A stretch of 64,000 nt of DNA from an uncultured bacterium (lineage in GTDB: Bacteria; Omnitrophota; Omnitrophia; Omnitrophales; Aquincolibacteriaceae): contig CAYPIR010000007.1 in the NCBI GenBank assembly GCA_964410905.1, positions 11,773-75,772 of the forward strand. The letters are read 5' to 3'. A program made the position numbers and the translations under genes. The notes under the pieces are model-generated. The model saw only the letters and a list, made by a program, of their open reading frames with translations, made no database searches and was not told the DNA's origin. Below, in pieces: positions 35,923 to 59,689 of the stretch. How positions within the stretch are numbered: position 1 is the stretch's first letter; every line of letters starts with the position of its first letter.

Positions 35923-36034
35923 TTTTAATGAGCTTAATAAGAATTTAAATTAACTTTATTTAATTAGCAATTAGCAAAGAACGAAGTAGGAAAATATATT
36001 ATGAGCAAAACATTTTTAGAGGAAGGTGACATAA

Positions 36035-45000: not shown

Positions 45001-48000
45001 GGTTAAGTTTCCCAAAGTCGCTAAACAACTAGATGTGAAGGCTAAACTTGAACGACTTCAAGAGGCCGCAAGACAAACAGCGAAAGAACGAAACTTAGAA
45101 CTTGCTCAGACTGCGGATGCTCTTTATAGGAAATATAAGGATTTAGACAACCGTGTTCACATCGATGCGTTTGTCGATGGCTTGCTTGCGGGCAACACTC
45201 GCATTGCCGCGGGACAATTCGCATCGATTGCGCGCCGCGCGGATTATGTCAGGAGTGAATATTTTCGCGTTTTTGGCTACGCGAATGCCGGCGTAAGTGT
45301 TTCATTAAGCGATACAGGCGTAAAAACTAAGACAACAAATATTGGTTTAGGCTTTGATATTCCGATTTTAGATTGGACGCGAAGTTCGGAGGCTATCTCT
45401 AAAGAAGCGGCGCAAAGAGCTAGTGTTTTGACAAAAACAGATGTTGATATGCGTTTGCATTTTCAAACTAATGAGCTTCTCAGAAGAATTGCTAATTTGA
45501 CAGAAGAACGGCAAAGAGTTGAAGAAAAAATTGCGAATGAAGAAAGTAAATCAAAAAAAATTGAAGAAGGAATTGAAATCCGAGCAAAAGAAGTTACGGA
45601 CGGCTCAGACTTGAGCCAGCAATCCAAACTTGCAAGACAAGCCGCGCGTTTGAGCCTTCTTGAAGCGCAGAGAGAGCTTGCCGCTTTGGATGAAAACCGA
45701 AATGCCGCCGTGATGATGCTGCGGCATCTGACTGATACGCATCTTGATTCTGATAATGTCGCCGTGTTGTCTAAAGAAGCGGAATTAAAACTTGATGATT
45801 CTAACTATGTTGAGAGTCTTGGGAAATTTCAAAATCCCGCGTTTGGATTTTTATCACTTGACGGAAAAATCACTCAAGAGGCCGTCCCTACAATTAAAAA
45901 AATGCTTAGTGTTACGCATAGTTTGATGAGCGAAATGACTAAAAAACTTAATGGTTTGAAACGCGCGAATCCAAACTATGAACAAAAATTAAAAGAGCTT
46001 GAGGAGGAACGAAAATCTTTGGATGCTGAAGCGGAGCAGCTCTTAAAAGAAAAGCCTCAGCAAAAAGATTTTGAAAACAAAAAAGACTTTAATAAAGCGG
46101 AAAAAGCATGGGAAGCAAAACGTAGTAGTTATGCGGAAAAATTAGCAAAAAATAATAAAAACAAACTGCCTCTTTCAGCGATTAGAGATTTAGAAAAAAC
46201 TCTTTCTCAATTTCAATCGGCGGAACGTGATTTGAATGAACTCAGCCTATCACCCGACGGCGATCAAACGGATGCTGTCCGCGGCATGCTTATCAATATT
46301 TTAAATGCCTCTGATAGTTATGTTACTTCTGATTATTTATTGCACAAATTCTTCACGCTTGGAGCGTATGATTCTCGCGACGCGTTTTATGAAGAGATTA
46401 GAACTTTGCTTGGAATTATTGCCGATAAAACGGCGGTGCGGGGAATTGTCGGCAGAATAGCAGCCAACGAAGAAGCTTTTGTAAAAATTGAAGAAGCGTG
46501 GAATGTCCTAAAATCGCCGCTTACTATTTCGCTTGGCGCGACATTTCAGGCTACATGGGGCGGGAATAGCGGGACATCTGTTTCCGGTTCGTTCGGAGGA
46601 GTTTTAAGTCATTTATTTTATGCTCCCGCAAGTTATTTGGGGCTCACGAGTGATACTCGAAATCAAATTGCCGGCGAACTTTTGCGCGAGGGTGCCCGCA
46701 ATGTTTTGAAAACTGCGGAAGCTCATCAAAAAGAAGATGTCGCGGTTCGGAATGTCCAAAAGAGGATTGGTGTTTTATCAAGCCGAGTTAAGTTGTATGA
46801 GCGCTTGAGAGATGAATTTACGAAAATGCAAACGGAAGTTGCGCGAAAAAATAAAACTATGGGTTTTGCGAATCTGGTGCGTAAATTATTTTTGAATAAT
46901 AGAGTGAGTGAGGAAAATCTTAATCTTAAAGTTTTAGAATACCAGATTCGTATCGAAAAAGACCAGGCATCTATTGACGCACTTAAAGATGAACTAAGAG
47001 ATACGCTTAACAACACATCTGAAGTTGAGGGAAGCGCCGGTTTTCAAGAAGGCGCGGCAGAATTTGCCGTAACAGAGCAGAGTATTAAAAATCAGTTGGA
47101 AGAGTTGGGCGCTCAAAGCCCTGAACAGCGTCTTGCGACACTTGACAGTATTGTGTCCGCTAACACGGCAAATTTAAGCATTGGGGGCGGCGCGAGATTT
47201 TCTAACGCGATTAGTTCTGCGGGCTCGTCTTTCAACCGAGATTTGGGTGTTTTTTATCAAAAACTTGATGCTGACTCAGGAACGCCGGGCGCTTCCGGCA
47301 ACCGTTATTTTGCAATGAACATTGATGTGTTGTCATTTGCGGGAAATCGCAGTGAAACATTCGCGCTTTTAATGGTGCACGATGAAAGCGAACGAGGAAC
47401 TTTAAGCCGCGAAAAACAAGCGCAAATTCAGGCGCAGGCTCTTGAATTACTTAGAGCGGTTTATCACGCGCGTGTCGCAAATAATGTTTATCGTGAAATT
47501 TCTAAAAGCGCCATTGGTATACATGCGCTTGAAAGAGTTTTAAATTTAAGCCGTGCTGAAAACGCTATGAAAGCAATGGCGGCATCGGCTTTAGGCAATG
47601 TTAGAGAAATTGAGGCCCTCGAGACTGTGAGTTCGCAAATTGCTAGATTAATGGCGGAACTTGGTTTGGCGGATTCTGACAGCGCTTTGAAAAATAAGGA
47701 ATTTTTGAGCCGGCTCAATGGGCTTGTAGCTGCAGCAGGCGATGACATTACAGCGGAAAGCGAAAAACTAACAAAGTTGGCCGCGGAACTTGGCGTTAAT
47801 TTTGATTTAATAGAAGGCTTAGACCTTAGCAAAACTATTTTGGAAGAGAACAAACTTACTCCAGCAACGTATCGCGCCTTGTTGCGTGAAGAAATTGCGC
47901 GGCAATTTGTCAAAACTCTAAAAAACAGCCGTTTTCAATTCACCGCCCGCGGCGGATTTCGCCAGCCGACTCGCGTGTCAGATTTTTCTGCGGCTGAACC

Positions 48001-51000
48001 TCTTGTTGAATTTGGCGTGTCGGCAATTATTCACGATTCTAATGTTGCGGCTGCTGAAAAATTTCATACTAAATGGATAGAAATTGAAAAAATTAAAAGC
48101 GTCCAAGCAAAATTAAAAGATAATAAAACATGGAAAGATATTGCCCGCGACATTAAGTATCTCAGCCAAGAAATTGAACAACGTTTGAAAACTGTTAAGG
48201 ACGCGGAAGAGTTGTATCGCATCGAAGGCGGAATTGGCCGTCAATTCGGCTACGACGACGCGCCTAATGATGTTGTCTTTGTCTATATGAATGAACTTTT
48301 GGCGTATAAGGCCGCAGTGGATTCATATATGTCGGCGGTTCAACGCGCCAACAGTTTCTTAATTGAACAAGGCATAAAAGTTGATGATACTCAAACTTCG
48401 CCGTCTTCCGCTAAAGTTAAAGATATGATTCCAGCTTGGATTAGCGACAAAATATCTTTCTTCGATACGGGCGTCGAGGAGAAATATGAGGCAGGTAATG
48501 GCTTAAATGTTGATTTGTCTACAGCGAAGGTAAGTGCCAACACAGAGTTGATAATTGATACGCGGGTAGATGAATCTGAAAATGCTCGGGTTGAAACGCT
48601 TTATCCAGACATTTCTGGAGCTACCGCGGAGCTTTTGAAGGCTATGGGATTGGCGCCGCTTGATGGAAACGCAAATAGCGAAGAGAAGGCTGACAGAGAA
48701 GACTTGCAAATTATTGCTCAAAATATTTTAGGTCGCGTTGCGGCTAACTATGGCAAAAAAGATGCGAATGCTTGGGTCGCCGAAATCACTGAAACTTATA
48801 ACAAACTTTCTGAAAATAAGTTTTGGGATAAATCGGAATTTGCGTCTCAAAACCACCGCACTTTGGGCGAGGAAGTTTTTGGAAACCTTTTCCGCGCCGC
48901 GTTTTTTGAAACAGGGAGAGTTAATAAACTTTTGCGTAACGCGAATATCGATTTGGATAAACTTGCATTCGCGGCATTTTTGGCAAGCTTAGATGGTGCC
49001 TCTGCTACTCGTCTTTCGCCAGATGAGCGCGCGGCGTTTAGGGACGCAATCCTTCGTGATTTGCCAGCGGCGCGAAAAGCTCTTCAAGAAGACAAAAAGA
49101 ATAAAACGGGAGTTTTTCGTTGGGACGCTGTCCAATTTTCAGAAATATTGTCTTTAGCAATTTTTCACGTGAGTGATACTGAAGCTAAAAAAATGTCTTT
49201 TGAAGATATTCTTAAAAATGATGAATATAGACGCGATATTTTTGAGATTTCTCCGGAAATCAATTTTAACAATGTCTCTAACGCGATTTTGGGTTTTAAT
49301 CGCGGAGATGACTCTCGCACAACAGGTTGGGAAGAATTGGCGGCATTTTTGGCAATCGCGCAAGGGAAATACGATCCCAATACTAAAACGGTGTCTCGTA
49401 AAATACTCGATGTCGCAAATCCTGAAACTATGGCAAATGTTTTGGCGGAGGTGGGGATTGCCAAAGCGAAAGATGACACAACCGCTTATTTGATTGCGCG
49501 CATGAGACATAATTTGGAAAAATTTACAAATCTTGATCCAACTAAAGATGAGCTTGGCGAGACGACTTATAATCGGTTGGTGAAGCTTGTTGAAGATGAG
49601 GCGAATGACTTGCTTGATAAAGCGGGCGTAAGCAAAGATGATATTAAAAGACGACGTGACACGGTCGAGAAAATGCAAATTGAGGCGTTGCGTTTTGCTA
49701 AAGCGGCGGCGTATGTAAACAATATTTTATATGGAACGGGATTTGAAGCGGGGATAGACAGAAACGAATGGCTCGCGAAATCTCTTGATGAACGCGTTTC
49801 GTTGACCGAAAAAAATATGGAAGTATCAAACGGGCTAATTTCAAGAGGCATAAAGAACCATATCGGAATGGATAAATCTTTGACCCCTCGCGAACAAAAA
49901 CAGGCCGAAGCGATTGTGAACGGTCTTATATCCAGCATGGCGTTTGAAATTATGGGCGAGACTGGAAAAGATATTGGAAGAGAAGGTATCAAGAGAATAG
50001 AGGAATTAAAAAAAGAAGCCAAAGAGCTTGAAAAGAAGATCAAAGAAAAGACCCTTTCGTCTAGCGCAACTACGGCAACGTCTTCTGTGTCTACAGCAAC
50101 GGAAGATGGTTCTGTTGAGACCTCAACCTTGCCAACAACATCGGTCACTGAAAGTTCTTCTGATGTTGATGCCTTGATGGCTCGGCTTGAGCAAGTCCGG
50201 GAAAAAATTAGTGATTTTGAAAAAAATCGCGCTAAAGCAAGAGCGGATTATGAGACATTTAGGAACCTTCCTTCCGCAGACCGCGAAACGCGCTTGATAG
50301 AGTTGCAAAAAGAAATGAATGCAATTCAACCGCGTGTGGAAAAAATGCTTGGCCGAAAATTAAATCTTGGCGAAGCCGCGGACATTGCAATCCTTCGAGC
50401 TCAGGCGGAAATGATTTTGGGTGATGTCCAATCTAAATTTATGGAAGGCGGAGCATTTGGTGATGATGAAGAGGCTTGGGATGAATGGCGCGAACTAACC
50501 GTTGAAAAACGCAGACAGATTTTCACAAAAGAACTTGATTCTGCGGCGAAGCTAAAGTCTGAGCTGCAGGGGATAGGCGTTTCTTTTAACCTTTCAGATA
50601 GGGATGAAGCTGGTAATAAAATGCCAGTCGAAGAACGTGGGGAAGATTTGGGTGTTTTGCTTTCTTTAGCAAAATCGGTTTTGTCTGACAAATTATCGAA
50701 TATTGGAACCGTTTTTACAAAAGATGGAGAAATTGTTCAAGGGAAAGAAGGTTTGGCTTGGGCGATTTTGACTGCGACAAGAGATGCTGATGTTCAAAAG
50801 GCAGCTGATGAATTTTTGAATAAAACATATCCGCGGTACAACACCTTAACACCCGTTGAAAAAAGAGGCCGGATTTTCTCTGCCATCGAAGAAACATTGG
50901 CGGATCATGCTACGAGTAAGGAATTAAGCGATTTGGACAGAGAAAAGTCTGAACTTGCGGATTTGATTAAATCTAAATTGCTTGGCAGAGTCGCGTTGTA

Positions 51001-54000
51001 TGAGAAAACTGGTTCTGCAACCGTTTTTGACAGAAAAAGTTTTGATGAGTTGAAAGAGGCTACGACTGTTACCGATTTAACTGAAACAACTTGGAAAAAC
51101 TTACTTTATTCGATTTCTAACTTGCCTAAAAAATCCACAGACACTGTTATTGCTCAAGTTGAGCATTTTGGAAGAGTTGATTTAGCTAAAAACCTGTCTT
51201 TTGGAGATAAGCTAAATCAAAAACCAGATTTCTGGTTAAGCGATAGTGAAAGAACTCGCTTGATTAGAGAATTTAAAACTCTTTCTGATCGAAATAAATC
51301 AAGTGCTGATGTGCTTGCGTGGGCAACCGAACTTTTAAAAATGTCTCTTTTTAATGGTAAAACTGTTGCTGATGTCAATCGATATGCTGAAGAAATGGAA
51401 GAAGTTAGAAACTTTTTGCAAGCGGCGTATAAATTGTATTCCGGGGCAGATTTGCCTTTGGGCGATCTTTCAGCATTTGCAAATGATGTCATAACTGCGG
51501 AAATGGATGTCAGACAGGAACAAGAAAGAAACAATGCGCGTTTAGGGCGGAAATTGACTGAAGCTGAAAAATTGTCCCAGCAACTAGAAGTTTTTGCTGT
51601 TAGATACCGTTATGGACATAAGCTCAAACTTTACGGCTTGGCTGAAGCGGCTTATGAGGGGAGAGAAGTTGCGAGTAATCCATACAAAAATAAAAACGAT
51701 CGAGTTTCTCAAATAATTTATTGGCTAAATTATTTTGGAAAAATCAATCAAGGCGATAAGTGGCAGGAGGTAAATGCTGACTGGGTTCGTCAACATCATA
51801 ATGGTTGGAGCAAACAGCAAATAGTTGGGAAAATTGAGCGGATTTTAGCGGAGCAATATGAAGGAGCTCCGCTTTTTGAACTCACCCCGGAAAGTGCTGT
51901 GAACCAACTTTATCAAGATGTTCAAGATGAGGCGATAATGGATTCAGTTATTTATATAACTCAAAAACATTTTCTCTCTAATGAAAAACTCTCAGCGCTT
52001 GTTTTCGCGGAGCGTGAAGGTAAAGAATCTATACCGCATTTCAAAATCACAAACAACGTTATGACATATGCGTATGACGTTGTCCCATTTTTACATTCGC
52101 TAGAAGACGGTGCGTGGAACGTTTCTGGGGGGTACGCAAACTATTTATTGCTTAAATATGCGACTCAACAAATTTGGGATCCGGATCTCCGTGCATTAGA
52201 AAAACCGGTTCAGGTGAATGGAAAAGATTTGGTTGTGTCTGTTAATGGCATAGATACTCCCGTAAATTTATCAGACTTAAATAATGTCTGGACAAGTTAT
52301 TTGTCTGTTTTTCGATCAGTTAGCATTCTTCAGGAACCAATTAATGAGATGGATTCAAATAAAGTTCTTTCATCGCTTTGGTTTGTTCAACAAATTAAGC
52401 AGCTTGAATCGGATTTGAAAGCTAAAGAAGCGGCAGGTGAAGAAATTGCGGTTGCTGTGAACGAGTTTATGACAGGCGTGAAGCGAGCGGAATCTGTTTT
52501 TTATCAATTTTCAAAAGATGAAGATAAGAAAAAAGATTTCATCAATAATTGGGCTAAAGACTTCTTGGTTGACCGCGAACGCCGCGCGGGGCAAAAATTT
52601 GAGAGGTATGATTTGGTTAAAATTGATGCCGAAATTAAGCACGGAAGAAAAGAGAATGCTAATAAATATGCCGCCGATGCTTTGGAAAAACATAGTCAAG
52701 AAGGTATCCGCAACGCTGCTTTTATTAGGCCTATGGTTGAGATAGTAAAAAAAGAGGCGAAACGCGGCTTTGAATATGAAATTGGAAAAGAGGATGCGAA
52801 AATTATTGCTGAGAAAATGGTTGATGAGGGCTGGGCGGCTCGTGAATTGTTACTTTTAGAGAAGGTTATTGTTCCTGCCCTTACTGAAGGCAGCTCTCTG
52901 ACTATAGAAGTACGCGGAGATATTTATAATGTAGCAGAAATTCTTTTGCAAAAAACAGAATCGGAAGAGCTTTTGAAATTGAGAGGAAGTAATCCGAAGG
53001 CGACAATTGAAAATATTTCGCTTCAAACTCTTAAAGCATCAATTGAAAAGCGTATTGAATTATATAAAAAAGTTATTGATCTTAAAAAGATTATTACGGA
53101 ACAATTTGTAAAATTTCAGGTTTATAGCAATGATGAGAAAATGTTTAAAAATGAAATTGTTAGAATTTCGACTGATGCTATTGAAAGAGGATTTCAAACA
53201 GAATCTCTCAGGCGTTGGTTTGAAACTGCGGAAACGCTTAACATGCTCAATCCTAAAGTTGATATATTGCAGACATTGTTTGTGGCTGACGGGCTTTTGC
53301 AATTAGGCCTTGCGACTCAGCCTCGTGAAAAAATAATTGAAAAGCATACAGATGCTGAAATCGCTGAAAAAATAAATGAAACCTTGGGCTGGATTTTTGC
53401 TGTGAGCGACAATACGCAACCGATGTATTCGTTGGGCGGAAAAAGCAGAACCGATTACGAAAATGAACTTACGCTTGAAAAATATATAAAAAATTATGAT
53501 TCCAAAACCCGCCAACAAATCAAAGAGGATTTGTATGCGCGAGTTACCTCGATGATTAAAAACGGTTCGCTAAGTTTTGCTGATTTGGAAAATCTGAAAA
53601 AATTAACAATTGAAAGAGTGGCGTTTTTAGTGAAAGGTGATACGGAGAGAAAATCAGACACCTTTTCAGCATATGATTTGCCTCAACCGCATCAAGTTGC
53701 GCCGCTTACTATTTTGTCGGTTTTAGATAACAGTGCAGGTGAGCCTTCTAAGCGGATTGGAATTTTAAATATTATTTTTTCTTCGCACAGAGGAGAAGTA
53801 AAAGGGGCGTCTTGGCTAAGATTTAACGACTTTAGAGATCCTTCTCGTCTTTCTGAGCAAGTAGCGGGGCAAACTGGCGCGATGGTTCGTCGTGAATTTG
53901 TTAAACTTGTTGATATTTACGATCCTGTAGATGCAGGGTTTCAATCTTGGTTTGGCAAGAATTTTCAAAAAATAAGCGAAGCTAGCGGATTTAGCAAAAA

Positions 54001-57000
54001 CTCAAAAGGTGAAGAGTCTTTGGCGAAAATTGTTCGTGGCGCGCTTATTGTCGGCACTGCTTTTTCGCTGTATGGTTTATTGGCGACGCTTATTAGGGGA
54101 AGAGTTTTTGCTGCACCTAAGTTATCAGGTTATTCAAAAGCAGAGAATGATAAGTCAAAACGTGGGGGGGCTGGAACTTCTGGTGACGCTGGTGCGAGCG
54201 GTGCCGGCGGTGATGGAGAAGGGAAAAAGCCTGTTTGGAAACAGGACCAGTCTGATAAAAATATTAAATTAATCAAAACTGGCGCGATTTTAGGTGTTGT
54301 CAGAATTTATCTCTTTAAATTTTTGCAATACTCTGCTGTTGCTGGACTTCTGCTTTTGGGGTTGGCAGTTATGCCGGCGACCGTTGGAACTTTTTCAATT
54401 TTATTTCAAATTATGTATTTGCTTATTCATTGGCAATTATTTGAACAAGCGATGTATGCATTTTTGGCATATGCATTTAGTTGGACAAGAGTATTTGCCG
54501 TTGTAGGTGTTTTGGGATCCATTTTTGTTGGAATTAGTTTTGCGCTAGGTTTGCCATGGTTGTCGGCTTTTGGAGCGATTTTAATGGCAAATCCTATTAC
54601 GGTGAGTTTGATACTAGTTTGGGTTGGTTTTTTTGCACTTGTTATGTTCTTAGGCTCTTCTAGGATGCCTTCGTCTGGCGTTCATTGGGCAAGTTTCGAT
54701 AAGTATATTAAAAACGCTCAAGATATAGAGCGGCTCTTTAGACCTGAACTTAATGATGAAAGAACTAAATTGGCGGAAGAAATGAAAGCCCAGATGGATA
54801 AAGTTGGTAAAGCGACTGACGAAACGGATAAAACTGAAGCCCAAAATAAACTAAAGGAACTTATTAGCAAGTTTAAAGAGATTACTCCATCGTTAGATAT
54901 GAATGATTTTCTCGGAGAAAACGAGAGAATTGATGCCGATCAATATGTTACAGACTTCGCACAGTCAAAACCAAATTTATCAGTTGATGAATTAGACGGA
55001 TTAATGTTGGCGCAAATCTTGACTTTAGCTTACAATAATTTTAAGCAAAAAAAATCTATTATATATTTTATGGACGACCTGATTTTGCAATATGTTAAAG
55101 CGGAAAATAGCGTGTCGGCAGAAATTACAGGAGATGAACGAACGCAGGCTGTAAAAGAAAAACTTAGAGAAATAATTAGTGCGGTCGTTAAGGGGGATAA
55201 GGCGTTTAAGAATAAGTCGGAAGAAGATCAAAAAAAGGTAATAGAAGCGCGTTTTAAACAAATTACGTCTTGGGTTGAAAGGATTAAAATTTGGCAAAAA
55301 ATGGCAGATGATGTTTTGACTTATGAAAACGGTGCGGAGAAGATAAATGGCAGCGATCGTCTCATAGTGTCTTTTTCTGGCGCAGGAGGTATGAGAAAAC
55401 CGGTAGGGAATGTTTTAGGGATTAACCAATTTACGGGTTATGGCGAAGATGGAACGCCGGGAAAATATTGGGGACAAATATCTAATGGAGGTGAGTTAGA
55501 TCCTGCAATGCTTGCTTGGCAGCCTTCTCATGATGGAAAACGTTTGCATGTTTATGGCCCAATGTATATTACGGACGTGCTGTTAAAGGCCGCAAAAGGT
55601 CAAACTCTTTCTGGTGTCGAAAAAAGTTTTATTGAAGAAGTTAAACTAGCAAAAGGACTTACTGACGAAGATTTGACGAAAATTGTCCCCGTTACAACAC
55701 ATGATAATGAACCGTTCTTTACAGGGGTTATGAAGGCGGATGGTTTTGTTGCTTATGATAGCTATGTTGCGCACGAAAGACCTGAAAACGATAAGACGGG
55801 ACTTGCGGTATTGCTACCGAAGAAATCAGATTCTGGAGAAATGATACCGCGAGTTATTTATTCGACAACTCTTGACTCAGGAAACTTTGTCAATGTTGGA
55901 ATGGATCTTTTGATGTATAAAGCGATGATCGAAAGACCTGATGCTGGAATGTTTCAAATGAACACTGGATATGTAACAGATAAATCAGACGTTCATTATG
56001 AAGAAAAAATAATATCACATCAATCTGGATTTGGGACGCAAATTTCTAACGGAAAAATTGCTGGGCAAATACGTGCGTTCGGTAAATATTCAATCAGAAC
56101 GGGTTTTGGGCGCGAATTTGGTCGTCCGCGTCCGGGCGTTCCAATGGGTTCGTATTTTTCACGCGTTATGCTTTATAGCGGAATCTTGCCTGAAATTGTA
56201 GAGACTTTCAGTGAAACAGAAACGAATATGAATATGGATGACTACAGAAAAGCCGTTTATGGAAAAATGAACGGCGGAGGCGGCTGGGTTGTTATAGTTA
56301 ACGGAGAAGACGAAATTGTAACCAATACTGCATCTGATATGTATGTTATCGCAAAGGCTATTTCTGATGAAAATGTTCTAAAACGATTGAGAGAAAAGGA
56401 TAATGTCTTGGGGCGAATGTATTTTGGACTAAAAACGCCGGTTATAGATGATGCCGCTGTTGAGCTTTTGGAGCCTGATATTTGGGAAAATCTTGCTAAG
56501 GGCGGAAATCCAATGCCTATGGGCAAGCCAGTTCTTTTAATGTGTAAAGACCGTGCGGGTATTATTGATGATACGGATTTTAATATGATTGCGGAAGACG
56601 GCAAGGCTGCAAAGTGGGGAATTATAAATGATGAAATTACGGATATTTTTAGAAATCGAGGCGGATTTGCCTTGACACCTCAGACGCGATTTTTTAACGA
56701 TCTCCCTAAAATTTCCTTGACCGTTGAAAAAAAATGGATGCAATCACTTTTGTGGTGGGCTGCTATGGGGTGCGTTCCGGGTCTCGGCGGGATTACCGGA
56801 GTTCTTGGTGCGTTGCTCTTGACAGCGATTGTGTTAGGGACGTTGATGTCTGCGCCGTTTATTGGAATTTTGCAATATTATTGGGCAAAGACAGTCAATG
56901 TTGTTAAGGAGCCGGGTAAGGCATTTAAAACGTATATTTTGGAGCCGATAGTTGATATTTTGGGAATGTTTGGAGAAAAATTTGGCAATAGCGGTCCTGA

Positions 57001-59689
57001 ATATGTTTCAAGTGCGCTTAAGCAGATACCTGTAATTATCATTGAGTTGCTTCAAATAATAAGCGGATCTGTATTGTTTAATTTTATTTATAATTTAGGC
57101 TCTTTGTCCTCTTCTAAGAGCAAATGGCGTAAATTTTTTGATAAAGTTGAACCTTTAAAACATGGACTAATTGGACTTTTTATTAAAACCCCTGTTCAAA
57201 AACGTGAAATGGATTTTGAACGTGAAAGGCTTGTTGCCCCGGCTCCTCCGGCGGGTATCCCAGAACAAAAAACGAAAGCCTATAAAGACTATTTGGATAA
57301 CCAAACAACAAGACATGGTCTTGCTTTAGGTTATTCCTTTTTGATTTTGTTTTTGACTCAACTGGGAATAGCGATACCTTTTTGGAGTATTGTTCTTCCT
57401 GTTGTCTACTTTACCATGATTTTGCCGGGTTTTTATGGAAGTAAAATTCATAGTGAGTTTGCACGAACTGTTATTTCAAAAGATGGTTATGATGTAAGCA
57501 AAGAAAGATTTAAACCATCGGAGGAAAATGTGGAGCACAATTATCGATACTTTGCTGAAAAATATAGGGCTTATGCAAATCATGTTATTTTTTCATCGTT
57601 ATTGGTTGTGCTTGTTGGATTTTTTGCTTCCGACCTTGCGTTGTTTTTAAATCCTGCATTTGTCTTTTTATCAACTATTTTGGCGTTGTATGGTTTTGGC
57701 CGTCCTTTTGTGTCGCAATGGACTGGAACAATATTTAAGACTAGAGCTGTTGCGCGGACGGCTTTGGCTGTGGAAGGGACGCTTATAATAGTGCTTTTCT
57801 TGAGTGCTATTTACATACCTTTGTTTAATGTTATTTTTCAAAAAATATTTGGTATGGCTTTGGCTAAATCGGCATTTTTGGGCGGGTCGGGATATTTTAT
57901 GGAAGGTATGAAGGGTTTCTTTGGGCTTGCTTCTGCTGGTTTTAGCCATTGGTGGATGGCGATACAATCTGCTTCTTTGTTGGGAACTTTGAGTGCTATA
58001 GGCTTGGGCGTTATCTCATCTGTTGCAAGATTTTTAGGATTTGAATATTCCGAAGATGCTGGGAGAGAAACGTGGAGTAAAAGGCTAACAGGAAATTGGG
58101 AAAAACTTTTTAAAGCGATAAAAGGTCCTTGGAGTAAAAAAACCAGAGCGCAGTTTTGGAAAAATTTTAAAGATAATTTGATTATGTATTTTAAAGCATT
58201 TGGTGCTACTGTAGGCAATAGTCGGGCGAGGAGTTTTAAGAAAATAGACGGTAAAAAGATTGAAAAGAAAACTCCTCCAACACCTATAGCGCCAGCGCCC
58301 TCGGCGGGAGAGCCTATTGCTGTGCCAGCTGAGCAAACGGAAACTCCAACGTCTGCGGAAACACCTGCTGTGCCAGCAGAGCAAACGAATACTCAGGCAG
58401 AGCCTAAACGAACAACAACTATGCAACCAACTCCAACGCCTGCGCCGATGGAAGAAAAAGCCGAACCGGCTTATGCACCTGCTCCAGCTACATCCGAAGA
58501 CGCAGAGACTACATCGACTAAATTAGAAACGCCAATTTCTCTAACCCCTGCACCAGTTGCTCCAGAAGCCCCCGAGGAGACATCGTCGGATGAGGCTGTT
58601 CAGTCGCCGGATTTGATGAATCCATTAACTCTCCCAGAAGCTTCTTTCGGAACAGATCGAAGGATTTTGACTAGATTAAATAATGCTAGATATAAAGTTG
58701 AAGCGACTACGGGCAGCAATGCCGAGATATATGGAGCCGGTGGGAGTTTTGTTGGAGTTAGGTCTAAAATTATCGCTGGCGGTAATTCTACTTTGACCTT
58801 CAGTATTGGAAATCCGTTGTCAAAGCCGCAATACTCGGTTGCGTTAGAACTCGGGTATGTTTATTTGCGACAGGAATTGACTCTTTCAGTGATTTTTACT
58901 GATGAGGGTGGTGAGACTTATTCTCGCGATATTAAAACAACAGCCTCAGCGGGAGAACGCATTTATACGTTTGAGCCTACTTTGAAGAATGTCGCATCGA
59001 TTACAATTGTTAACAAAACCGAAGGTGATTCAGCTTATGCTATCAGATTCGCCGGTGGAATTGCTGGTAATGCGCGAAGTGAATTGAGAGAAACTAAATC
59101 AGCACGTGAAAAAGAGCTTGAGCGTGCGCTTAATTCGACTCGTGCTATGGATTTGGAAATCAAATATAATGAAATTTTGTCTTTGGCAAAAGCTGATGAG
59201 ATCGAACGCTCGCTGACCGGTTGGGCGACTAACGAAAAGATTCTTGTTTCGCTGGGCTTACCGTCAACTTTTATTAGAACGAACAATATAAAGATTTTCG
59301 ATGGATTTAACACGGAAAAGTTGGAAGCGTATTTATCGAGCGCTAGTAGAGATGTGCGGGTTATAGTTGCTAACGCCAGCCTTGAAGATGTGGAGATTGC
59401 TAATGCCATATTCGCAAAGTTTGGCATTCCTAAGGGCTATGGCGTGGCAACATCTGATTCTGTTGAGACAGTTATGACTAAACGCGCTTTGAATGTTGCG
59501 AACGCAATTCAAATTAGGGATACGGCTTCGCTCCCTGCGGGTGTTTACGCCAAGTTGCTGGCAGAGATACCGGGCTTGGTGGTTGTGTCAGACAATAATG
59601 TGGGAATTGCAAGCGCGAATCAAATTAGCGCCGTAGAAGTTATTGTCGCCGCGTTCGAGGCTCAACAAGCGGTTGCGATCGCTGCGTAA
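36035..59689 (+). CDS. Giant 7,884-aa multidomain envelope protein. It contains an N-terminal signal/TM segment, a SecA-like ATPase core and three multi-TM clusters. It also has a ~4,000-aa alpha-helical region with TolC/OEP-like segments, a Pro/Thr-rich linker and a beta-rich C-terminal domain.
   Basis: 23,655 nt with no in-frame stop. All overlapping antisense ORFs are short. A rho-independent terminator follows at 59726-59757. The domain evidence is given in the sub-features. Confidence 0.85.
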   Translation: MINAQTGKLKSWIRTIAFFTVFIFTFTSVVWDGGINKAYAAAAQPRLDSRVSTTVLTSIIDRSDLPETYGTIKNSYRGAGDQVFIHVQDAHINEEAQLNIANILKWFSEKHQMRLVNIEGAEGELNAKTLTAISDKAARKDVSGYFLREGRMAGADYFAIVDKPELTLYGAEDNELYEENRKAYVNALEFKDKDEKVLSSLRSIMEKVGRFIFSDEARELYRRRVDFQDGGAQLVAYVRYLVSIAEKNQMDLSAYSGMKSLLQLVDLEKKVNFDKAESEVDRLVEHLKKTLQSDKLSRFLTNTVHFRMKRMNRADYYSYLQSEIDGLIDAETVKTQYLNAIAYIEYMKLYDLIGIAIFDEIEFLERTIKAKILTTPEAQKLDQLYRVWDIMQKMFDFSLTKQDAEYFYSNQTAFSSNNFVEFLTPLMKEHRFSDSIPANASILDTDLSKVEKFYQLALERDIVIIERAIEKTMRSGQKVSAIVTGGFHTPGIEAALKEKGFSYLVVTPRISKSIDQKKESKLYDEALRQTPLPIEKVLSETLTLQSGTVNDPRFQLSAKHFLDVPEMVDQAATLMAAKSILNAVAEGKSPAARLEELRRTAADANSPKLMKILNSFEVGTINGKQVPVYPNINGTYLAFFSETTKPSEVSPKYRSSIQNLKLSDDSFLSMRVVAPEQISGISRSETRQLTDGTSALKLDAFEAEGIKVEAGKIERGVFQKELIAKSGYAGYGFVVPDLTRASDKALRDISAAFSDSKINDKLKAVSSAFSEAGVDPIAVSSQAVLRLLSENTADEIAQKVSLLRLLNRSITTSNVGYSVEKLQELAAEAQAQKQAAQETAVAELAKTKVEVPTVAGGVSAEMIEQRINAFLGKYKTRNVNGKEIENSEKVLNIMRLALRGIFADPKNSENNAAANSVFTRFEEQIKVARDITEESLNQVTMGAGKTTILQLGLQYLYDKGFKQSEGKGVVLVTANDKLSERDAEKSAAMFGGQGIIVGSVSKDESGKPIGHIYDLKTKTFKTTTAEDVYKNTDFIFGSMETFQFRAIEERKALNEKDRIFTSREFAHLLDEADAQLDNNNPAIISGGIKEDAEEIRARTIKANAFVKGIFFSGVNDGFVDVSEAKNQSRSVKLTEKGVAKLRASFPNLSESEFDLLKESVNTSLTVYFAYEEGVDYVVKTTTAATEDGKASKKVEIVLLSEGQERPGTRLQGGLHSAIEAKHMQSESDVQLEHDIEGSITVPEYLSLPHVKGWGGVSGTYDKPQMEAKYGKVVKESALKSKRGEEGAIFATEQEKTDAFLADALARHRAGHPIIIKVAEGKTAETAKQIRDYFAKNGEKVDEEAVGIFDATSRTDLKEFEATAGKKGAISVVTQIGARGVDVKVENGKTIEEMLDEAIDKVQAEITRQNLVFTGYALYIDDKEALDIQFRGRVGRANDEGLFRAFWSADDPIFNKYKELAGVQAVLADIKNALRSGKTLTSEQAFKLISTLQTAVSDQEISSWKSNKLFGEEKNARLKEFTAIREAILKGEFNSPIVQNIFPGLSEFAASLNDANKEKLRIGLLKLMDKAWSKYETKSEESRVALTRILQSGWQGVAAQKDAVESFQKVMRGVYQGIVLELQKQIAGISAESRSEAEEVIRRIDFAARWKSFGNKLLAYVYGGAVVGAVAVVIAKVMAFVSVTGKIGGGAAALASLTDTLAPVMNLLPGWAWIGIALFAAMGTFAIAQTLLKRFQQSYRGTKNIALLLSGQAVSEERASAGLSVLVQPLTMIVSITPIGVVLTGVAAIAAPALAPLLWTIAAISAVAALVAAGLIVAVNYSKHIKDAARPTDTAMGRIGRASFVGLALMTGLVTVFKPIILTGAAASFTTIFGAVAILAVIAFSGYWVMKGFDSAYGKEFAGLQHNIKLNQIGAAVGVSLAIFAGAIAFAVGSTAIALTVLMSLGSILFAAVSILQIIAAPGITKKIAEQKSAAKGERFGKRDAFGELFEFVVVNARSIILGLGGIVGLVFTATNLALPITLAYTGLAGAAATVVTAAGVTLILAVVISLVFMGIAKYRNGLLERKAKGEIFTNKIEKVFSTDSKKIVGVVLGLVGISAAMPSLAAGAQYVQQSATAEYTSVTTTSESASVTEQYLETGKTSLPQGITVSVAEKTVAQKPVTASQLEDTEKKAETPVVAAPAHDVSKDVVAPPPPREDFTITMDKTSFGPAGIAWKVSRDGTTAADNEENLIEAVRNAEKDASIASAQADLNAFIYRVVQAFDTGAQGKSEEDQKRITNAKAEFLEEATNGLAQVSENPLDLNDVVANLDALSHRLFDLAGLDRDDARIRQSIAEDQAQTRAELMEDALRLSESQAEKDAAVAVEEPVVMTEALAAAWEDYEKFKADTIENLINTEDAERLNAFNDRADELEKNVVTVEDLHLAQLELDQIATIFEDAGGDVIGEAASGAGDGAGTPPPPPTSEYGPVVPLLADMLPVTVPRPAAEGSAAGTAGAAAGAARVVADKLVQVDAKRVAKDVSVSGPVAFSKEIIRRTIAGDQLHEPMGLSVATILFAEDHQAPHVIAMAQEAENYKDYSEDYKSWGTFLTAGVRSVLTKHEETKTYKTQTIEKGERLVDIDDEYDFGLGLTELETYSYMKTNVSSVTSKVEEPFVASASAGIKTGSAEIKEDKLKKLQVEQTRLSAKHAYIEQQMDKLFHMVEIVTANRSLETIQENEKLLRELKRKQEKLSGISAEVKARSKSLDVALDGLEVAKNDIAKERDRHAAHIAYLSGRADISNSEDFMKFVNGLTFKKIEEDISGSHLPTDMARVVVQSARNYVLMRVAEQDKIAGLSWQLTTPEIGVSYGSEYGWNLRANLFTFDAQWSYRDFQKNKAKIFKSEAAAADVLSRLLDEVEKAQLDRSRIDDVRKSIEELKAQKDAQQAIVESLFSDPTGKSIRDEDSNAALVKLLKIQRLLIAAEGDAYQRNVAAQELDTVIRNVSQAINELSVKFPKVAKQLDVKAKLERLQEAARQTAKERNLELAQTADALYRKYKDLDNRVHIDAFVDGLLAGNTRIAAGQFASIARRADYVRSEYFRVFGYANAGVSVSLSDTGVKTKTTNIGLGFDIPILDWTRSSEAISKEAAQRASVLTKTDVDMRLHFQTNELLRRIANLTEERQRVEEKIANEESKSKKIEEGIEIRAKEVTDGSDLSQQSKLARQAARLSLLEAQRELAALDENRNAAVMMLRHLTDTHLDSDNVAVLSKEAELKLDDSNYVESLGKFQNPAFGFLSLDGKITQEAVPTIKKMLSVTHSLMSEMTKKLNGLKRANPNYEQKLKELEEERKSLDAEAEQLLKEKPQQKDFENKKDFNKAEKAWEAKRSSYAEKLAKNNKNKLPLSAIRDLEKTLSQFQSAERDLNELSLSPDGDQTDAVRGMLINILNASDSYVTSDYLLHKFFTLGAYDSRDAFYEEIRTLLGIIADKTAVRGIVGRIAANEEAFVKIEEAWNVLKSPLTISLGATFQATWGGNSGTSVSGSFGGVLSHLFYAPASYLGLTSDTRNQIAGELLREGARNVLKTAEAHQKEDVAVRNVQKRIGVLSSRVKLYERLRDEFTKMQTEVARKNKTMGFANLVRKLFLNNRVSEENLNLKVLEYQIRIEKDQASIDALKDELRDTLNNTSEVEGSAGFQEGAAEFAVTEQSIKNQLEELGAQSPEQRLATLDSIVSANTANLSIGGGARFSNAISSAGSSFNRDLGVFYQKLDADSGTPGASGNRYFAMNIDVLSFAGNRSETFALLMVHDESERGTLSREKQAQIQAQALELLRAVYHARVANNVYREISKSAIGIHALERVLNLSRAENAMKAMAASALGNVREIEALETVSSQIARLMAELGLADSDSALKNKEFLSRLNGLVAAAGDDITAESEKLTKLAAELGVNFDLIEGLDLSKTILEENKLTPATYRALLREEIARQFVKTLKNSRFQFTARGGFRQPTRVSDFSAAEPLVEFGVSAIIHDSNVAAAEKFHTKWIEIEKIKSVQAKLKDNKTWKDIARDIKYLSQEIEQRLKTVKDAEELYRIEGGIGRQFGYDDAPNDVVFVYMNELLAYKAAVDSYMSAVQRANSFLIEQGIKVDDTQTSPSSAKVKDMIPAWISDKISFFDTGVEEKYEAGNGLNVDLSTAKVSANTELIIDTRVDESENARVETLYPDISGATAELLKAMGLAPLDGNANSEEKADREDLQIIAQNILGRVAANYGKKDANAWVAEITETYNKLSENKFWDKSEFASQNHRTLGEEVFGNLFRAAFFETGRVNKLLRNANIDLDKLAFAAFLASLDGASATRLSPDERAAFRDAILRDLPAARKALQEDKKNKTGVFRWDAVQFSEILSLAIFHVSDTEAKKMSFEDILKNDEYRRDIFEISPEINFNNVSNAILGFNRGDDSRTTGWEELAAFLAIAQGKYDPNTKTVSRKILDVANPETMANVLAEVGIAKAKDDTTAYLIARMRHNLEKFTNLDPTKDELGETTYNRLVKLVEDEANDLLDKAGVSKDDIKRRRDTVEKMQIEALRFAKAAAYVNNILYGTGFEAGIDRNEWLAKSLDERVSLTEKNMEVSNGLISRGIKNHIGMDKSLTPREQKQAEAIVNGLISSMAFEIMGETGKDIGREGIKRIEELKKEAKELEKKIKEKTLSSSATTATSSVSTATEDGSVETSTLPTTSVTESSSDVDALMARLEQVREKISDFEKNRAKARADYETFRNLPSADRETRLIELQKEMNAIQPRVEKMLGRKLNLGEAADIAILRAQAEMILGDVQSKFMEGGAFGDDEEAWDEWRELTVEKRRQIFTKELDSAAKLKSELQGIGVSFNLSDRDEAGNKMPVEERGEDLGVLLSLAKSVLSDKLSNIGTVFTKDGEIVQGKEGLAWAILTATRDADVQKAADEFLNKTYPRYNTLTPVEKRGRIFSAIEETLADHATSKELSDLDREKSELADLIKSKLLGRVALYEKTGSATVFDRKSFDELKEATTVTDLTETTWKNLLYSISNLPKKSTDTVIAQVEHFGRVDLAKNLSFGDKLNQKPDFWLSDSERTRLIREFKTLSDRNKSSADVLAWATELLKMSLFNGKTVADVNRYAEEMEEVRNFLQAAYKLYSGADLPLGDLSAFANDVITAEMDVRQEQERNNARLGRKLTEAEKLSQQLEVFAVRYRYGHKLKLYGLAEAAYEGREVASNPYKNKNDRVSQIIYWLNYFGKINQGDKWQEVNADWVRQHHNGWSKQQIVGKIERILAEQYEGAPLFELTPESAVNQLYQDVQDEAIMDSVIYITQKHFLSNEKLSALVFAEREGKESIPHFKITNNVMTYAYDVVPFLHSLEDGAWNVSGGYANYLLLKYATQQIWDPDLRALEKPVQVNGKDLVVSVNGIDTPVNLSDLNNVWTSYLSVFRSVSILQEPINEMDSNKVLSSLWFVQQIKQLESDLKAKEAAGEEIAVAVNEFMTGVKRAESVFYQFSKDEDKKKDFINNWAKDFLVDRERRAGQKFERYDLVKIDAEIKHGRKENANKYAADALEKHSQEGIRNAAFIRPMVEIVKKEAKRGFEYEIGKEDAKIIAEKMVDEGWAARELLLLEKVIVPALTEGSSLTIEVRGDIYNVAEILLQKTESEELLKLRGSNPKATIENISLQTLKASIEKRIELYKKVIDLKKIITEQFVKFQVYSNDEKMFKNEIVRISTDAIERGFQTESLRRWFETAETLNMLNPKVDILQTLFVADGLLQLGLATQPREKIIEKHTDAEIAEKINETLGWIFAVSDNTQPMYSLGGKSRTDYENELTLEKYIKNYDSKTRQQIKEDLYARVTSMIKNGSLSFADLENLKKLTIERVAFLVKGDTERKSDTFSAYDLPQPHQVAPLTILSVLDNSAGEPSKRIGILNIIFSSHRGEVKGASWLRFNDFRDPSRLSEQVAGQTGAMVRREFVKLVDIYDPVDAGFQSWFGKNFQKISEASGFSKNSKGEESLAKIVRGALIVGTAFSLYGLLATLIRGRVFAAPKLSGYSKAENDKSKRGGAGTSGDAGASGAGGDGEGKKPVWKQDQSDKNIKLIKTGAILGVVRIYLFKFLQYSAVAGLLLLGLAVMPATVGTFSILFQIMYLLIHWQLFEQAMYAFLAYAFSWTRVFAVVGVLGSIFVGISFALGLPWLSAFGAILMANPITVSLILVWVGFFALVMFLGSSRMPSSGVHWASFDKYIKNAQDIERLFRPELNDERTKLAEEMKAQMDKVGKATDETDKTEAQNKLKELISKFKEITPSLDMNDFLGENERIDADQYVTDFAQSKPNLSVDELDGLMLAQILTLAYNNFKQKKSIIYFMDDLILQYVKAENSVSAEITGDERTQAVKEKLREIISAVVKGDKAFKNKSEEDQKKVIEARFKQITSWVERIKIWQKMADDVLTYENGAEKINGSDRLIVSFSGAGGMRKPVGNVLGINQFTGYGEDGTPGKYWGQISNGGELDPAMLAWQPSHDGKRLHVYGPMYITDVLLKAAKGQTLSGVEKSFIEEVKLAKGLTDEDLTKIVPVTTHDNEPFFTGVMKADGFVAYDSYVAHERPENDKTGLAVLLPKKSDSGEMIPRVIYSTTLDSGNFVNVGMDLLMYKAMIERPDAGMFQMNTGYVTDKSDVHYEEKIISHQSGFGTQISNGKIAGQIRAFGKYSIRTGFGREFGRPRPGVPMGSYFSRVMLYSGILPEIVETFSETETNMNMDDYRKAVYGKMNGGGGWVVIVNGEDEIVTNTASDMYVIAKAISDENVLKRLREKDNVLGRMYFGLKTPVIDDAAVELLEPDIWENLAKGGNPMPMGKPVLLMCKDRAGIIDDTDFNMIAEDGKAAKWGIINDEITDIFRNRGGFALTPQTRFFNDLPKISLTVEKKWMQSLLWWAAMGCVPGLGGITGVLGALLLTAIVLGTLMSAPFIGILQYYWAKTVNVVKEPGKAFKTYILEPIVDILGMFGEKFGNSGPEYVSSALKQIPVIIIELLQIISGSVLFNFIYNLGSLSSSKSKWRKFFDKVEPLKHGLIGLFIKTPVQKREMDFERERLVAPAPPAGIPEQKTKAYKDYLDNQTTRHGLALGYSFLILFLTQLGIAIPFWSIVLPVVYFTMILPGFYGSKIHSEFARTVISKDGYDVSKERFKPSEENVEHNYRYFAEKYRAYANHVIFSSLLVVLVGFFASDLALFLNPAFVFLSTILALYGFGRPFVSQWTGTIFKTRAVARTALAVEGTLIIVLFLSAIYIPLFNVIFQKIFGMALAKSAFLGGSGYFMEGMKGFFGLASAGFSHWWMAIQSASLLGTLSAIGLGVISSVARFLGFEYSEDAGRETWSKRLTGNWEKLFKAIKGPWSKKTRAQFWKNFKDNLIMYFKAFGATVGNSRARSFKKIDGKKIEKKTPPTPIAPAPSAGEPIAVPAEQTETPTSAETPAVPAEQTNTQAEPKRTTTMQPTPTPAPMEEKAEPAYAPAPATSEDAETTSTKLETPISLTPAPVAPEAPEETSSDEAVQSPDLMNPLTLPEASFGTDRRILTRLNNARYKVEATTGSNAEIYGAGGSFVGVRSKIIAGGNSTLTFSIGNPLSKPQYSVALELGYVYLRQELTLSVIFTDEGGETYSRDIKTTASAGERIYTFEPTLKNVASITIVNKTEGDSAYAIRFAGGIAGNARSELRETKSAREKELERALNSTRAMDLEIKYNEILSLAKADEIERSLTGWATNEKILVSLGLPSTFIRTNNIKIFDGFNTEKLEAYLSSASRDVRVIVANASLEDVEIANAIFAKFGIPKGYGVATSDSVETVMTKRALNVANAIQIRDTASLPAGVYAKLLAEIPGLVVVSDNNVGIASANQISAVEVIVAAFEAQQAVAIAA
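38600..40960 (+). other. SecA-like translocase ATPase core (NBD1, PPXD-like insert, NBD2, helical scaffold) embedded in the giant protein.
   Basis: MGAGKTT (SecA: MRTGEGKT). KGVVLVTANDKLSERDAE (SecA: KGVHVVTVNDYLAQRDAE). LLDEADAQLDNNNPAIISG (SecA: [21 protein letters not shown]). EEGVDYVVK...GQERPGTRLQGGLHSAIEAKH (SecA PPXD: [40 protein letters not shown]). TQIGARGVDVK (SecA: TNMAGRGTDI). GRVGRANDEGLFRAFWSADDPIF (SecA: [23 protein letters not shown]). GWQGVAAQKDAVESF (SecA HSD: GYAQKDPKQEY). Confidence 0.8.
41000..42370 (+). other. Polytopic membrane domain (about 10-12 predicted TM helices) immediately C-terminal to the SecA-like core.
   Basis: A continuous run of 18-25-residue hydrophobic segments rich in A/G/V/I/L, separated by short polar loops. 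Confidence 0.6.
44550..46950 (+). other. Alpha-helical region with TolC/OEP-like (outer-membrane-factor-like) repeat segments. Tentative.
   Basis: Gly/Ser/aromatic strand-like segments (GVSYGSEYGWNLRANLFTFDAQWSYRDF; GLGFDIPILDWTRS; TFQATWGGNSGTSVSGSFGGV). Each is followed by long helices with OEP-like text such as GSDLSQQSKLARQAARLSLLEAQRELAALDENRNAAV. Confidence 0.3.
54020..54670 (+). other. Second multi-TM cluster (~6 helices), preceded by a Gly-rich acidic loop.
   Basis: Hydrophobic helices LIVGTAFSLYGLLATLI, AILGVVRIYLFKFLQYSAVAGLLLLGLAV, VFAVVGVLGSIFVGISFALGL and others. Confidence 0.55.
55350..56720 (+). other. Unassigned ~450-aa globular Gly-rich, non-helical domain between TM clusters 2 and 3.
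   Basis: Composition shifts sharply from coiled-coil to a G/P/aromatic-rich sequence (FSGAGGMRKP..., GFGREFGRPRPGVPMGSYF..., NGGGGWVVIVNGEDE...). I recognise no family signature. Confidence 0.4.
56735..58050 (+). other. Third multi-TM cluster (~10 helices).
   Basis: WMQSLLWWAAMGCVPGLGGITGVLGALLLTAIVLGTLM ... through SASLLGTLSAIGLGVISSVARFLGF. Confidence 0.55.
58265..58630 (+). repeat. Low-complexity Pro/Thr/Ala/Glu-rich linker with an imperfect ~27-nt direct repeat (AVPAEQTETP / AVPAEQTNTQ).
   Basis: TGCTGTGCCAGCTGAGCAAACGGAAACTCC at 58319-58348 against TGCTGTGCCAGCAGAGCAAACGAATACTCA at 58367-58396. Translation reads PTPIAPAPSAGEPIAVPAEQTETPTSAETPAVPAEQTNTQAEP... Confidence 0.6.
58650..59689 (+). 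other. Beta-rich C-terminal domain of unknown function, ending in a hydrophobic Ala/Val-rich tail.
   Basis: Alternating polar/hydrophobic strand-like pattern (TLTFSIGNPL..VALELGYVYLRQELTLSVIFTDEGGETYSRDIKTTAS..ITIVNKTEGDSAYAIRFAGG). The terminus is ...VEVIVAAFEAQQAVAIAA. Confidence 0.4.

Follow-up and report, generated by a model that had tools for sequence, protein, structure and literature searches.

A conserved membrane module with an unassigned domain in a family of giant proteins from Omnitrophota and neighbouring lineages

Giant membrane proteins with SecA_DEAD domains are a described class in the Omnitrophota (West-Roberts et al., 2023; bioRxiv 10.1101/2023.11.21.568195), treated as well by Nielsen and Lui (2026; bioRxiv 10.64898/2026.06.07.730766), and both studies focus on proteins in the range of at least 10-30 thousand amino acids (kaa). 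Secondary SecA_DEAD proteins have also been tied to genes resembling those of type I secretion systems (T1SS), which encode HlyD, M50-like and GAF components and sometimes OEP, and a polytopic membrane partner has been postulated to serve as the pore in these loci (Kamneva et al., 2015; PMC4452313). Here we analyse 64,000 nucleotides of an uncultured bacterium of the Omnitrophota (assembly GCA_964410905.1, contig CAYPIR010000007.1, positions 11,773 to 75,772 of the forward strand; this whole stretch is called the window below) that contains an uninterrupted open reading frame (ORF) for a protein of 7,884 amino acids (aa). Towards its C-terminus lie two clusters of transmembrane (TM) helices, B and C, separated by a helical linker and a domain, and this arrangement of B, domain and C is, as judged from alignments, the conserved inner-membrane module of a small family of giant proteins. 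Coordinates of all features are collected in Table 1.

The hydrophobic parts of the giant protein are few and sharply bounded. When hydropathy was scanned with the Kyte-Doolittle scale in 19-residue windows and a cut-off of at least 1.6, all 307 windows that reached the cut-off fell within four places, namely a segment at aa 12-30 and the clusters A (aa 1656-2105), B (aa 5999-6206) and C (aa 6920-7331), and none in aa 31-1655, 2106-5990, 6212-6900 or 7340-7884, as against a mean of 37 such windows, scattered along the chain, in shuffles of the same protein. On this scale cluster B spans nucleotides ~54029-54652 and cluster C ~56792-58027. The giant protein has about 25 TM helices across four clusters. 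An original prediction, made from the letters of the DNA, had the protein entering the membrane twice more near its C-terminus and possessing at least three separate membrane regions in a manner unlike adhesins; the delimitation of B and C bears out the first of these statements and the count of 11, five and about eight helices in the multi-TM regions the second, and such an architecture is what is expected of the giant SecA-domain, multi-TM class. The helix counts themselves come from a scan of insertion free energy (dG) on the Hessa scale read together with family alignments, and here the earlier estimates need revision: the positions of both clusters hold, while B has five helices rather than about six and C about eight rather than about ten.

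Cluster B consists of a first helix followed, after a K/G-rich loop, by two hairpins, with an NP turn that is conserved in the family alignment. In cluster C the helices form four hairpins, to which one or two amphipathic or re-entrant pieces are added, and its hydrophobic pattern, a PG turn, an N-P motif and a GDG-like motif are kept in 15 sequences; shared motifs run through the alignments of both clusters, which comprise 13-15 sequences. It might be argued that these segments are the buried cores of soluble domains, since the calls were made from scales and alignments and not by a trained TM predictor. We consider this extremely improbable, as 12-13 segments of at least 19 residues lie between -3.2 and +3 kcal/mol in summed Hessa dG, form hairpins whose turns of 3-16 residues are uncharged, and keep their hydrophobic pattern while the sequence diverges, whereas the other ~6,800 residues of the protein hold no comparable segment. 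Between B and the domain, the charged linker has a composition with 47% helix formers and contains no hydrophobic window.

The domain itself lies outside described families. Pfam gave no match for it, for either TM cluster or for the entire C-terminal half of the giant protein, and only noise when all 17 family members were searched one by one; NCBIfam returned nothing for the domain, and the PDB sequences gave no match to the single sequence, the family profile, the C-terminal 1,916 aa or a stand-alone homologue. The earlier statement that no motif could be assigned is therefore upheld by the searches, as is the location given for the domain (55350-56720, to be compared with the profile envelope in Table 1). 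Its description as rich in Gly, Pro and aromatic residues is right for the first two (G 11.6% and P 4.8%, against 6.5% and 2.7% in the whole protein), with aromatic residues only slightly raised (9.2% against 8.1%). Neither Pfam nor NCBIfam found a match, to ABC, RND or MFS proteins or otherwise, in aa 5969-7884 or in the cluster C regions of six relatives, and the motif G-x4-G-K-[ST] occurs nowhere in the 7,884 aa.

What the domain does possess is a set of residues that have not changed. In an alignment of 17 sequences with a mean identity of only ~25%, ten columns are invariant (H6662, R6680, G6683, K6684, Y6685, Y6707, G6716, E6758, D6759 and E6760), all within the most conserved core; among them are those of the motif R6680-x-F-G6683-K6684-Y6685 and the consecutive E6758-D6759-E6760, which stand within N-G-E-D-E, and further columns (F, G, P, N, D-D and W) are nearly invariant. 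These ten residues look like a binding or catalytic site, a reading drawn from their conservation. The proposal that the domain might be enzymatic consequently retains some plausibility, given that the invariant residues are mostly polar or charged.

The family was assembled by two routes. When 1.84 billion cluster representatives were searched exhaustively with the domain by phmmer, nine relatives were found (E-values from 7e-24, for P0001, to 5e-4; about 30-39% identity), six of which are 5,491-7,634 aa long. In addition, a degenerate DNA motif was built by hand from the conserved core (R-x-F-G-K-Y, 14 residues, then P-G-x-P-x3-Y); it matches once in the window and never in shuffles, and it recovered 11 loci in the genomes of GTDB species and five true loci in metagenomes, nearly all of them within frames that remain open across the DNA retrieved. 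A further metagenome locus, L015, was rejected as a chance match in GC-rich DNA. Together the two routes give 17 distinct sequences, nearly all within giant ORFs, from metagenome-assembled genomes (MAGs) labelled Omnitrophota/Omnitrophica, Elusimicrobiota/Elusimicrobia and, in one case, Verrucomicrobia, with some unlabelled. The closest relatives of the window's domain are L008 (38% identity; unlabelled MAG) and L002/L016 (34%; Omnitrophota MAG). A search of GTDB genomes for loci resembling this single protein found no close relative. A hmmsearch with a profile from alignment A1 gave E=6e-155 for the window protein, a value that is partly circular because that protein is among the profile's source sequences; its place in the family is supported independently by the phmmer match to P0001, the invariant columns and the flanking clusters. 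Word-indexed searches with the whole module, with a 10-sequence alignment of the domain and with a 16-sequence alignment of the core were empty, which reflects a gap in the index and not absence, for P0001-P0009 are in the same collection.

All 17 sequences have the domain, and the flanking clusters were found wherever the sequence extended far enough. P0001, P0005, P0006, P0007 and P0009 share the succession of B, linker, domain and C, with linkers of ~115-340 aa, and in BLASTP window aa 6121-7347 align with P0001 aa 5585-6864, and aa 5066-5987 with P0001 aa 4543-5500. Of two shorter database entries, P0008 is a contig fragment, and P0004 is probably a frameshifted gene call, as its sequence lies within a giant open frame in L010 and differs only at the C-terminus. 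Because members differ in their SecA-like region, OEP region and tails, it is the B-domain-C module that forms the constant unit. A test of the domain for horizontal mobility had been proposed; every occurrence found was inside its own protein family, with none as a stand-alone domain or in a different architecture, which speaks against mobility. That the giant ORF is an artefact of assembly or gene calling, with several genes merged into one, might be thought of because one lineage encodes the module as a separate gene. It is a very improbable explanation nonetheless: the frame is open for 23.6 kb, homologous giant ORFs are present in independent assemblies, and the same fused order is borne by eight contigs from several samples for P0001 and by five further giant ORFs.

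The lineage with the separate gene is known from three assemblies from different samples, and in it the system is divided into two adjacent genes. Gene 1 (2,939 aa) encodes a signal peptide, two stretches that match Pfam OEP/TolC (E=1.3e-21 in L024), ~2,500 aa and cluster B; its long helical part aligns with the regions ahead of B in P0005, P0006, P0007, P0009 and P0001, and it terminates ~30 residues past the five-helix cluster B. Gene 2 (964-985 aa; P0002) encodes ~560 hydrophilic N-terminal residues that include the domain, preceded by a linker counterpart of ~140 aa, shorter than that of the window protein, and then cluster C at the end; it has no signal peptide and no TM segment ahead of the domain. 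This natural fission shows that the domain and cluster C can exist as a separate subunit of 985 aa, with the TolC-fused protein as its partner.

The two-gene form also helps to orient the module. The signal peptide and OEP region of gene 1 place the chain on the periplasmic side before cluster B, and B has an odd number of helices (five, conserved across the family) whereas C has an even number. The distribution of K and R residues points the same way: there are 15 in the B1-B2 loop and 10 in the stretch after B5, 21 in the 89 residues of the tail after C (aa 7332-7420; nucleotides 58028-58294), and, over 15 homologues of cluster C, 3.6% in the short hairpin loops as against 11.7% in the long-loop flanks. 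From the two-gene split, the odd helix count and the K+R bias on the side of the domain, we strongly infer that the domain faces the cytoplasm. At the other end of the giant protein, the loops of cluster A carry 35 K+R on the side of the SecA-like region and two on the opposite side, a split that suggests 11 helices, with the chain inside ahead of the cluster and outside after it. The whole chain would then run from a cytoplasmic N-terminal domain and SecA-like ATPase through the 11 TM helices of A to ~3,900 periplasmic residues, back through the five helices of B to a cytoplasmic linker and domain, and through the ~8 helices of C to a cytoplasmic tail.

The domain had originally been proposed as a possible enzymatic or ligand-binding head, and this topology is difficult to reconcile with a head outside the cytoplasm, held at the cell surface between two membrane anchors. 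Such a head would suit the Gly/Pro-rich, globular composition of the domain and the long surface-type regions and P/T-rich linker near the C-terminus, and helix counts based on hydropathy are uncertain. Yet a stand-alone protein composed of the domain and cluster C has nothing ahead of the domain to carry it across the membrane, the partner's signal peptide and OEP region make the chain before B periplasmic with five conserved helices to follow, and the K/R bias marks the side of the domain as the inside. An exposed head thus seems quite unlikely.

The reading that we favour, to which we would assign about an even chance, is that the module is the inner-membrane base, transporter-like or enzyme-like, of a fused trans-envelope apparatus. 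After ~3,900 residues in the periplasm, the chain would enter the inner membrane by way of the five-helix anchor B and place its ~220-aa helical linker and ~470-aa domain on the cytoplasmic side, and it would then weave through the four tight hairpins of C to finish in a lineage-specific cytoplasmic tail. The domain would bind a ligand or substrate from the cytoplasm, or process it, while the ~13 helices would supply a path through the membrane, and the two together would make up the inner-membrane base, fed from the cytoplasm, of a trans-envelope conduit whose parts are covalently fused. The TolC/OEP channel would be the outer end of that conduit in relatives, and the N-terminal end of the window protein would add a SecA-like motor and an 11-TM bundle. 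That the module has a role in transport or enzymatic turnover we infer weakly, from the conserved residues and the layout. It is tempting to go further and to imagine a new kind of trans-envelope machine made of one or two polypeptides, with a TolC-type duct, thousands of periplasmic residues and a new ~13-TM unit, whose domain would represent a new fold or enzyme family, carry a site of H, R-F-G-K-Y and E-D-E, and load or drive a substrate, possibly a glycan, and which in the window protein might use its own SecA-like motor to export the 3,900-aa loop in cis; this fuller version is possible though doubtful.

The main rival to the inner-membrane base is a purely structural anchor, in which B and C would only hold the far end of the periplasmic segment in the inner membrane as stop-transfer elements and the domain would serve in the cytoplasm as a plug or as a platform on which, for instance, the SecA-like motor of the same protein could dock, with neither catalysis nor transport. 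In its favour, an enzymatic signature was not found, the periplasmic stretch has a tether at either end, in cluster A and in cluster B, and the tails after C differ between lineages. Thirteen helices with conserved intramembrane motifs, however, exceed what a simple anchor needs, as do ten invariant and mostly charged or polar residues kept across phyla, and relatives in which no SecA-like region can be detected retain the module all the same. We regard the structural anchor as rather unlikely, while recognising it as the strongest competitor.

Another possibility is that the module is a glycan synthase and exporter, in which the domain would be a glycosyltransferase or polymerase of very divergent sequence and the helices on either side would form the polymer channel, much as if BcsA or PgaC had been joined to a scaffold in the periplasm and a duct in the outer membrane. 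The layout of TM helices, cytoplasmic domain and TM helices is compatible with this, carbohydrate genes adjoin P0001, P0005 and P0009, gene pairs with GGDEF domains flank P0005 and P0009, P0003 has weak matches to Epimerase and GDPGP1_C somewhere along its length, and a PGI-like gene stands two genes upstream in the window. These neighbourhood associations appear in only three of seven contexts, however, and none of the 17 members has a Pfam match to a glycosyltransferase. When the family profile from alignment A2 was compared by hhalign with E. coli BcsA and PgaC the probability was ~0.1%, a weak test since the templates were single sequences, and the low-confidence structural models of the domain show no Rossmann-like alternation in its conserved half. 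We therefore consider a glycan synthase unlikely, and homology of the domain to synthases of glycosyltransferase family 2 (GT2) was rejected on the empty Pfam result and the hhalign value.

Several observations weigh against an inner-membrane base of a trans-envelope conduit, or at least against parts of it. The topology derives from simple hydrophobicity scales and helix parity and not from a trained predictor or experiment, and the segment at aa 13-31, which resembles a signal peptide, would conflict with a cytoplasmic location of the SecA-like region in the 1,600 aa that follow. No match to OEP (PF02321) was obtained with the window protein, whole or in 500-aa fragments, at E<=1, so that its link to the outer membrane comes from its relatives only, and HlyD and M50 domains were not detected in it either. 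Pfam and motif scans of the domain gave no signature of a catalytic family, P-loop, ABC, RND or MFS protein, and the invariant residues could serve structure instead of function. Structure prediction is of little help: two AlphaFold2 runs with 10 rows each, one led by the window domain and one by the more consensus-like P0005 domain, reached a mean pLDDT (predicted local distance difference test) of 44.6 and 44.0. The structural comparison that had been proposed for the domain was carried out by Foldseek with the first of these models, and its best E-value was 3.6, from a model with a pLDDT of ~44.

Table 1. Positions of the giant ORF, its parts and the two-gene relatives (window numbering, except for the two-gene loci)
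Feature	Residues (aa)	Position (nt)	Strand	Basis or remark
Giant ORF	7,884 aa	36035..59689	+	uninterrupted frame, 23.6 kb; contains the module under study
Conserved N-terminal domain	53-571	36191..37747	+	BLASTP 40-47% identity to P0001 and P0007 N-termini
SecA-like ATPase	819-1541	38489..40657	+	Pfam SecA_DEAD 1e-11, SecA_PP_bind 3e-8, P-loop_SecA 1.5e-8
TM cluster A, 11 helices	1656-2105	41000..42349	+	probably N-in, C-out
3,896-aa stretch without TM-grade segment	2106-6001	42350..54037	+	probably periplasmic
TM cluster B, 5 helices		54038..54652	+	hydropathy, dG scans, family alignment
B1		54038-54094	+	
K/G-rich loop		54095-54334	+	
B2		54335-54403	+	
B3		54410-54478	+	
B4		54491-54547	+	
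B5		54596-54652	+	
Charged helical linker	6207-6429	54653..55321	+	probably cytoplasmic
~470-aa domain of new family	6430-6899	55322..56731	+	profile envelope; probably cytoplasmic
Most conserved core, all ten invariant residues		56018..56314	+	alignments A1, A2, A3
TM cluster C	6904-7331	56744..58027	+	~8 spanning helices, four hairpins
K/R-rich tail straight after cluster C		58028..58258	+	probably cytoplasmic
Lineage-specific C-terminal extension		58259..59686	+	P/T/A/E-rich linker, beta-rich region, alpha/beta region
Two-gene locus L024		1116-12895		
Two-gene locus L001		1771-7952	-	

The hydrophobic segment at aa 13-31 of the giant protein (nucleotides 36071-36127) is followed by A-Y-A-A-A-A and reads like a Sec signal peptide. 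The domain at aa 53-571 is far more conserved than the rest of the protein and has no Pfam match; its motifs H-x-Q-D-x-H and T-G-G-F-H are, we presume, reminiscent of domains of the ChaN, TIKI and erythromycin-esterase type. The SecA-like region also matches NCBIfam SecA NF006630 (E=5e-34, covering model positions 97-634 of 789), and its motif I (GAGKT) and DEAD box are intact; Pfam finds no SecA_SW (scaffold/wing) match in the giant protein, and the region has no detectable counterpart in other family members. The long stretch before B had been described as about 4,000 aa of helix, which is right as to a long stretch without TM segments (3,896 aa) and wrong in making it wholly helical, for beta-rich islands can be read in the sequence; the last ~900 aa of the stretch are homologous across the family. 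At aa ~2560-4010 (nucleotides ~43700-48100) a long helix comes after each of five or six such islands, as in 'NIGLGFDIPILDWTRSSEAISKEAAQ', in a pattern that resembles TolC/OEP repeats. A TolC-like reading of this region was abandoned as a claim, though it is kept as a lead, as there was no significant match from Pfam with 500-aa fragments, from phmmer with E. coli TolC, from jackhmmer started with the relatives' OEP regions or from self-comparison. Among relatives, OEP was found by Pfam in P0005 (E=1e-10) and in gene 1 of L024, as given above, and P0005 and P0012 bear the NCBI name 'TolC family protein', which for some relatives is tagged Elusimicrobiota.

Beyond cluster C the extension is not conserved in the family, and the BLAST alignment with P0001 stops at aa 7347. 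It begins with a low-complexity P/T/A/E-rich linker (58259-58624; aa 7409-7530) with near-repeats of 'PAVPAEQT' that leads to a beta-rich region, for which there is a weak, sub-threshold match to OMP_b-brl_3 (E=0.0025-0.007). In relatives the tails carry unrelated domains (HEAT plus DUF218, or Trypsin_2) or nothing, and no conserved domain common to the tails after C was found.

The 19 ORFs scanned in the neighbourhood of the giant ORF are ordinary chromosomal genes, including those for ArgRS, MiaA, NadE, LepA and peptidases, and the same context holds a patatin-like phospholipase fused to a cyclic-nucleotide-binding domain (23745-25733) and a tRNA-Ala(CGC) (27451-27523). Directly upstream of the giant ORF are a gene for a cell-wall amidase with Amidase_2 and LysM domains (34319-35146) and then a gap of 888 bp (35147-36034) with no ORF of at least 150 aa; the surrounding 2-kb block, 34001-36000, has a GC fraction of 0.35. 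At 1-6102 (+) lies the C-terminal part, at least 2,033 aa, of a further very large protein, which extends past the window start, has several matches to methyltransferase families and a calcineurin-like phosphoesterase domain, and contains no TM-grade segment. A third large ORF of at least 1,150 aa at 60549-64000 (+) extends past the window end, with one N-terminal hydrophobic segment and no Pfam match. Three very large genes thus stand within 64 kb. Beside relatives, we observed a 1,514-aa SGL_GH162 protein and a UDP-glucose dehydrogenase fusion (L018/L019, next to P0001), a PF10091 glycoamylase with CBM9 (L025, next to P0005) and a 2,763-aa PGM/PMM protein (L022, next to P0009); in the GGDEF gene pairs that flank P0005 and P0009, one gene has a GAF domain.

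The giant SecA-domain proteins of the Omnitrophota and their neighbours have been known mainly as long, unannotated ORFs, and neither their organisation in the envelope nor a common core was previously known. Our analysis isolates one unit, in which a cytoplasmic domain is flanked by five TM helices on one side and ~8 on the other and which is common to at least two phyla amid an otherwise divergent remainder, and it offers ten invariant residues as a set for mutation as well as a concrete topology for the whole protein: a cytoplasmic motor, 11 TM helices, a periplasmic loop tethered at both ends and a cytoplasmic domain. The best small target for experiments is the two-gene form, which provides a clonable unit of 985 aa for work on structure and topology. 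Should the domain prove to be catalytic or coupled to transport, it would represent a new class of inner-membrane component for envelope-spanning systems.

How does the family compare with what has been described? The trans-envelope logic is that of tripartite efflux and type I secretion systems, in which a TolC-family factor, an adaptor and an inner-membrane transporter cooperate. As there, relatives have a bona fide OEP/TolC region at the exported end and a polytopic inner-membrane part at the other, and that part bears a cytoplasmic domain. They differ in that all parts belong to a single polypeptide or a pair, with 2,500-3,900 aa connecting them and no HlyD adaptor, and in that neither a P-loop nor a signature of ABC, RND or MFS proteins occurs in the inner-membrane part. 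The SecA_DEAD loci of Kamneva et al. (2015) are similar in having a SecA_DEAD ATPase outside the canonical Sec system that is associated with components of TolC/T1SS type. In those loci, however, the components are spread over several genes, whereas here they are fused, with a polytopic part from a family that is undescribed and unrelated; HlyD, Peptidase_M50-like and GAF domains are found neither in the giant ORF nor in the 19 neighbouring ORFs scanned. With processive synthases such as BcsA and PgaC, the family has in common a cytoplasmic domain between TM bundles, an analogy of layout only, and glycan-related and cyclic di-GMP genes near some relatives, yet it lacks a GT2 domain and the D, DxD, TED and QxxRW motif set.

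The nearest described class remains the Omnitrophota giants. Like them, the window protein is encoded by one very long ORF, has numerous TM helices and a sequence that is mostly unannotated, and it has divergent SecA DEAD and preprotein-binding domains from which the scaffold/wing part is missing; the nearest relatives of its domain and N-terminus are proteins of Omnitrophota MAGs. At 7,884 aa, however, it falls below the giant range of at least 10,000 aa that those studies use. Since giant SecA-domain, multi-TM proteins are already a described class, the finding is not categorically new. The passages searched in the two papers make no mention of the B-domain-C module, its domain family, its occurrence in TolC-type giants of Elusimicrobiota or the two-gene form. 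To that extent, what appears to be undescribed is the module that is shared with the Elusimicrobiota TolC-type giants, the domain family with its invariant residues, the probable cytoplasmic orientation of the domain, and the natural division of the system into two genes.

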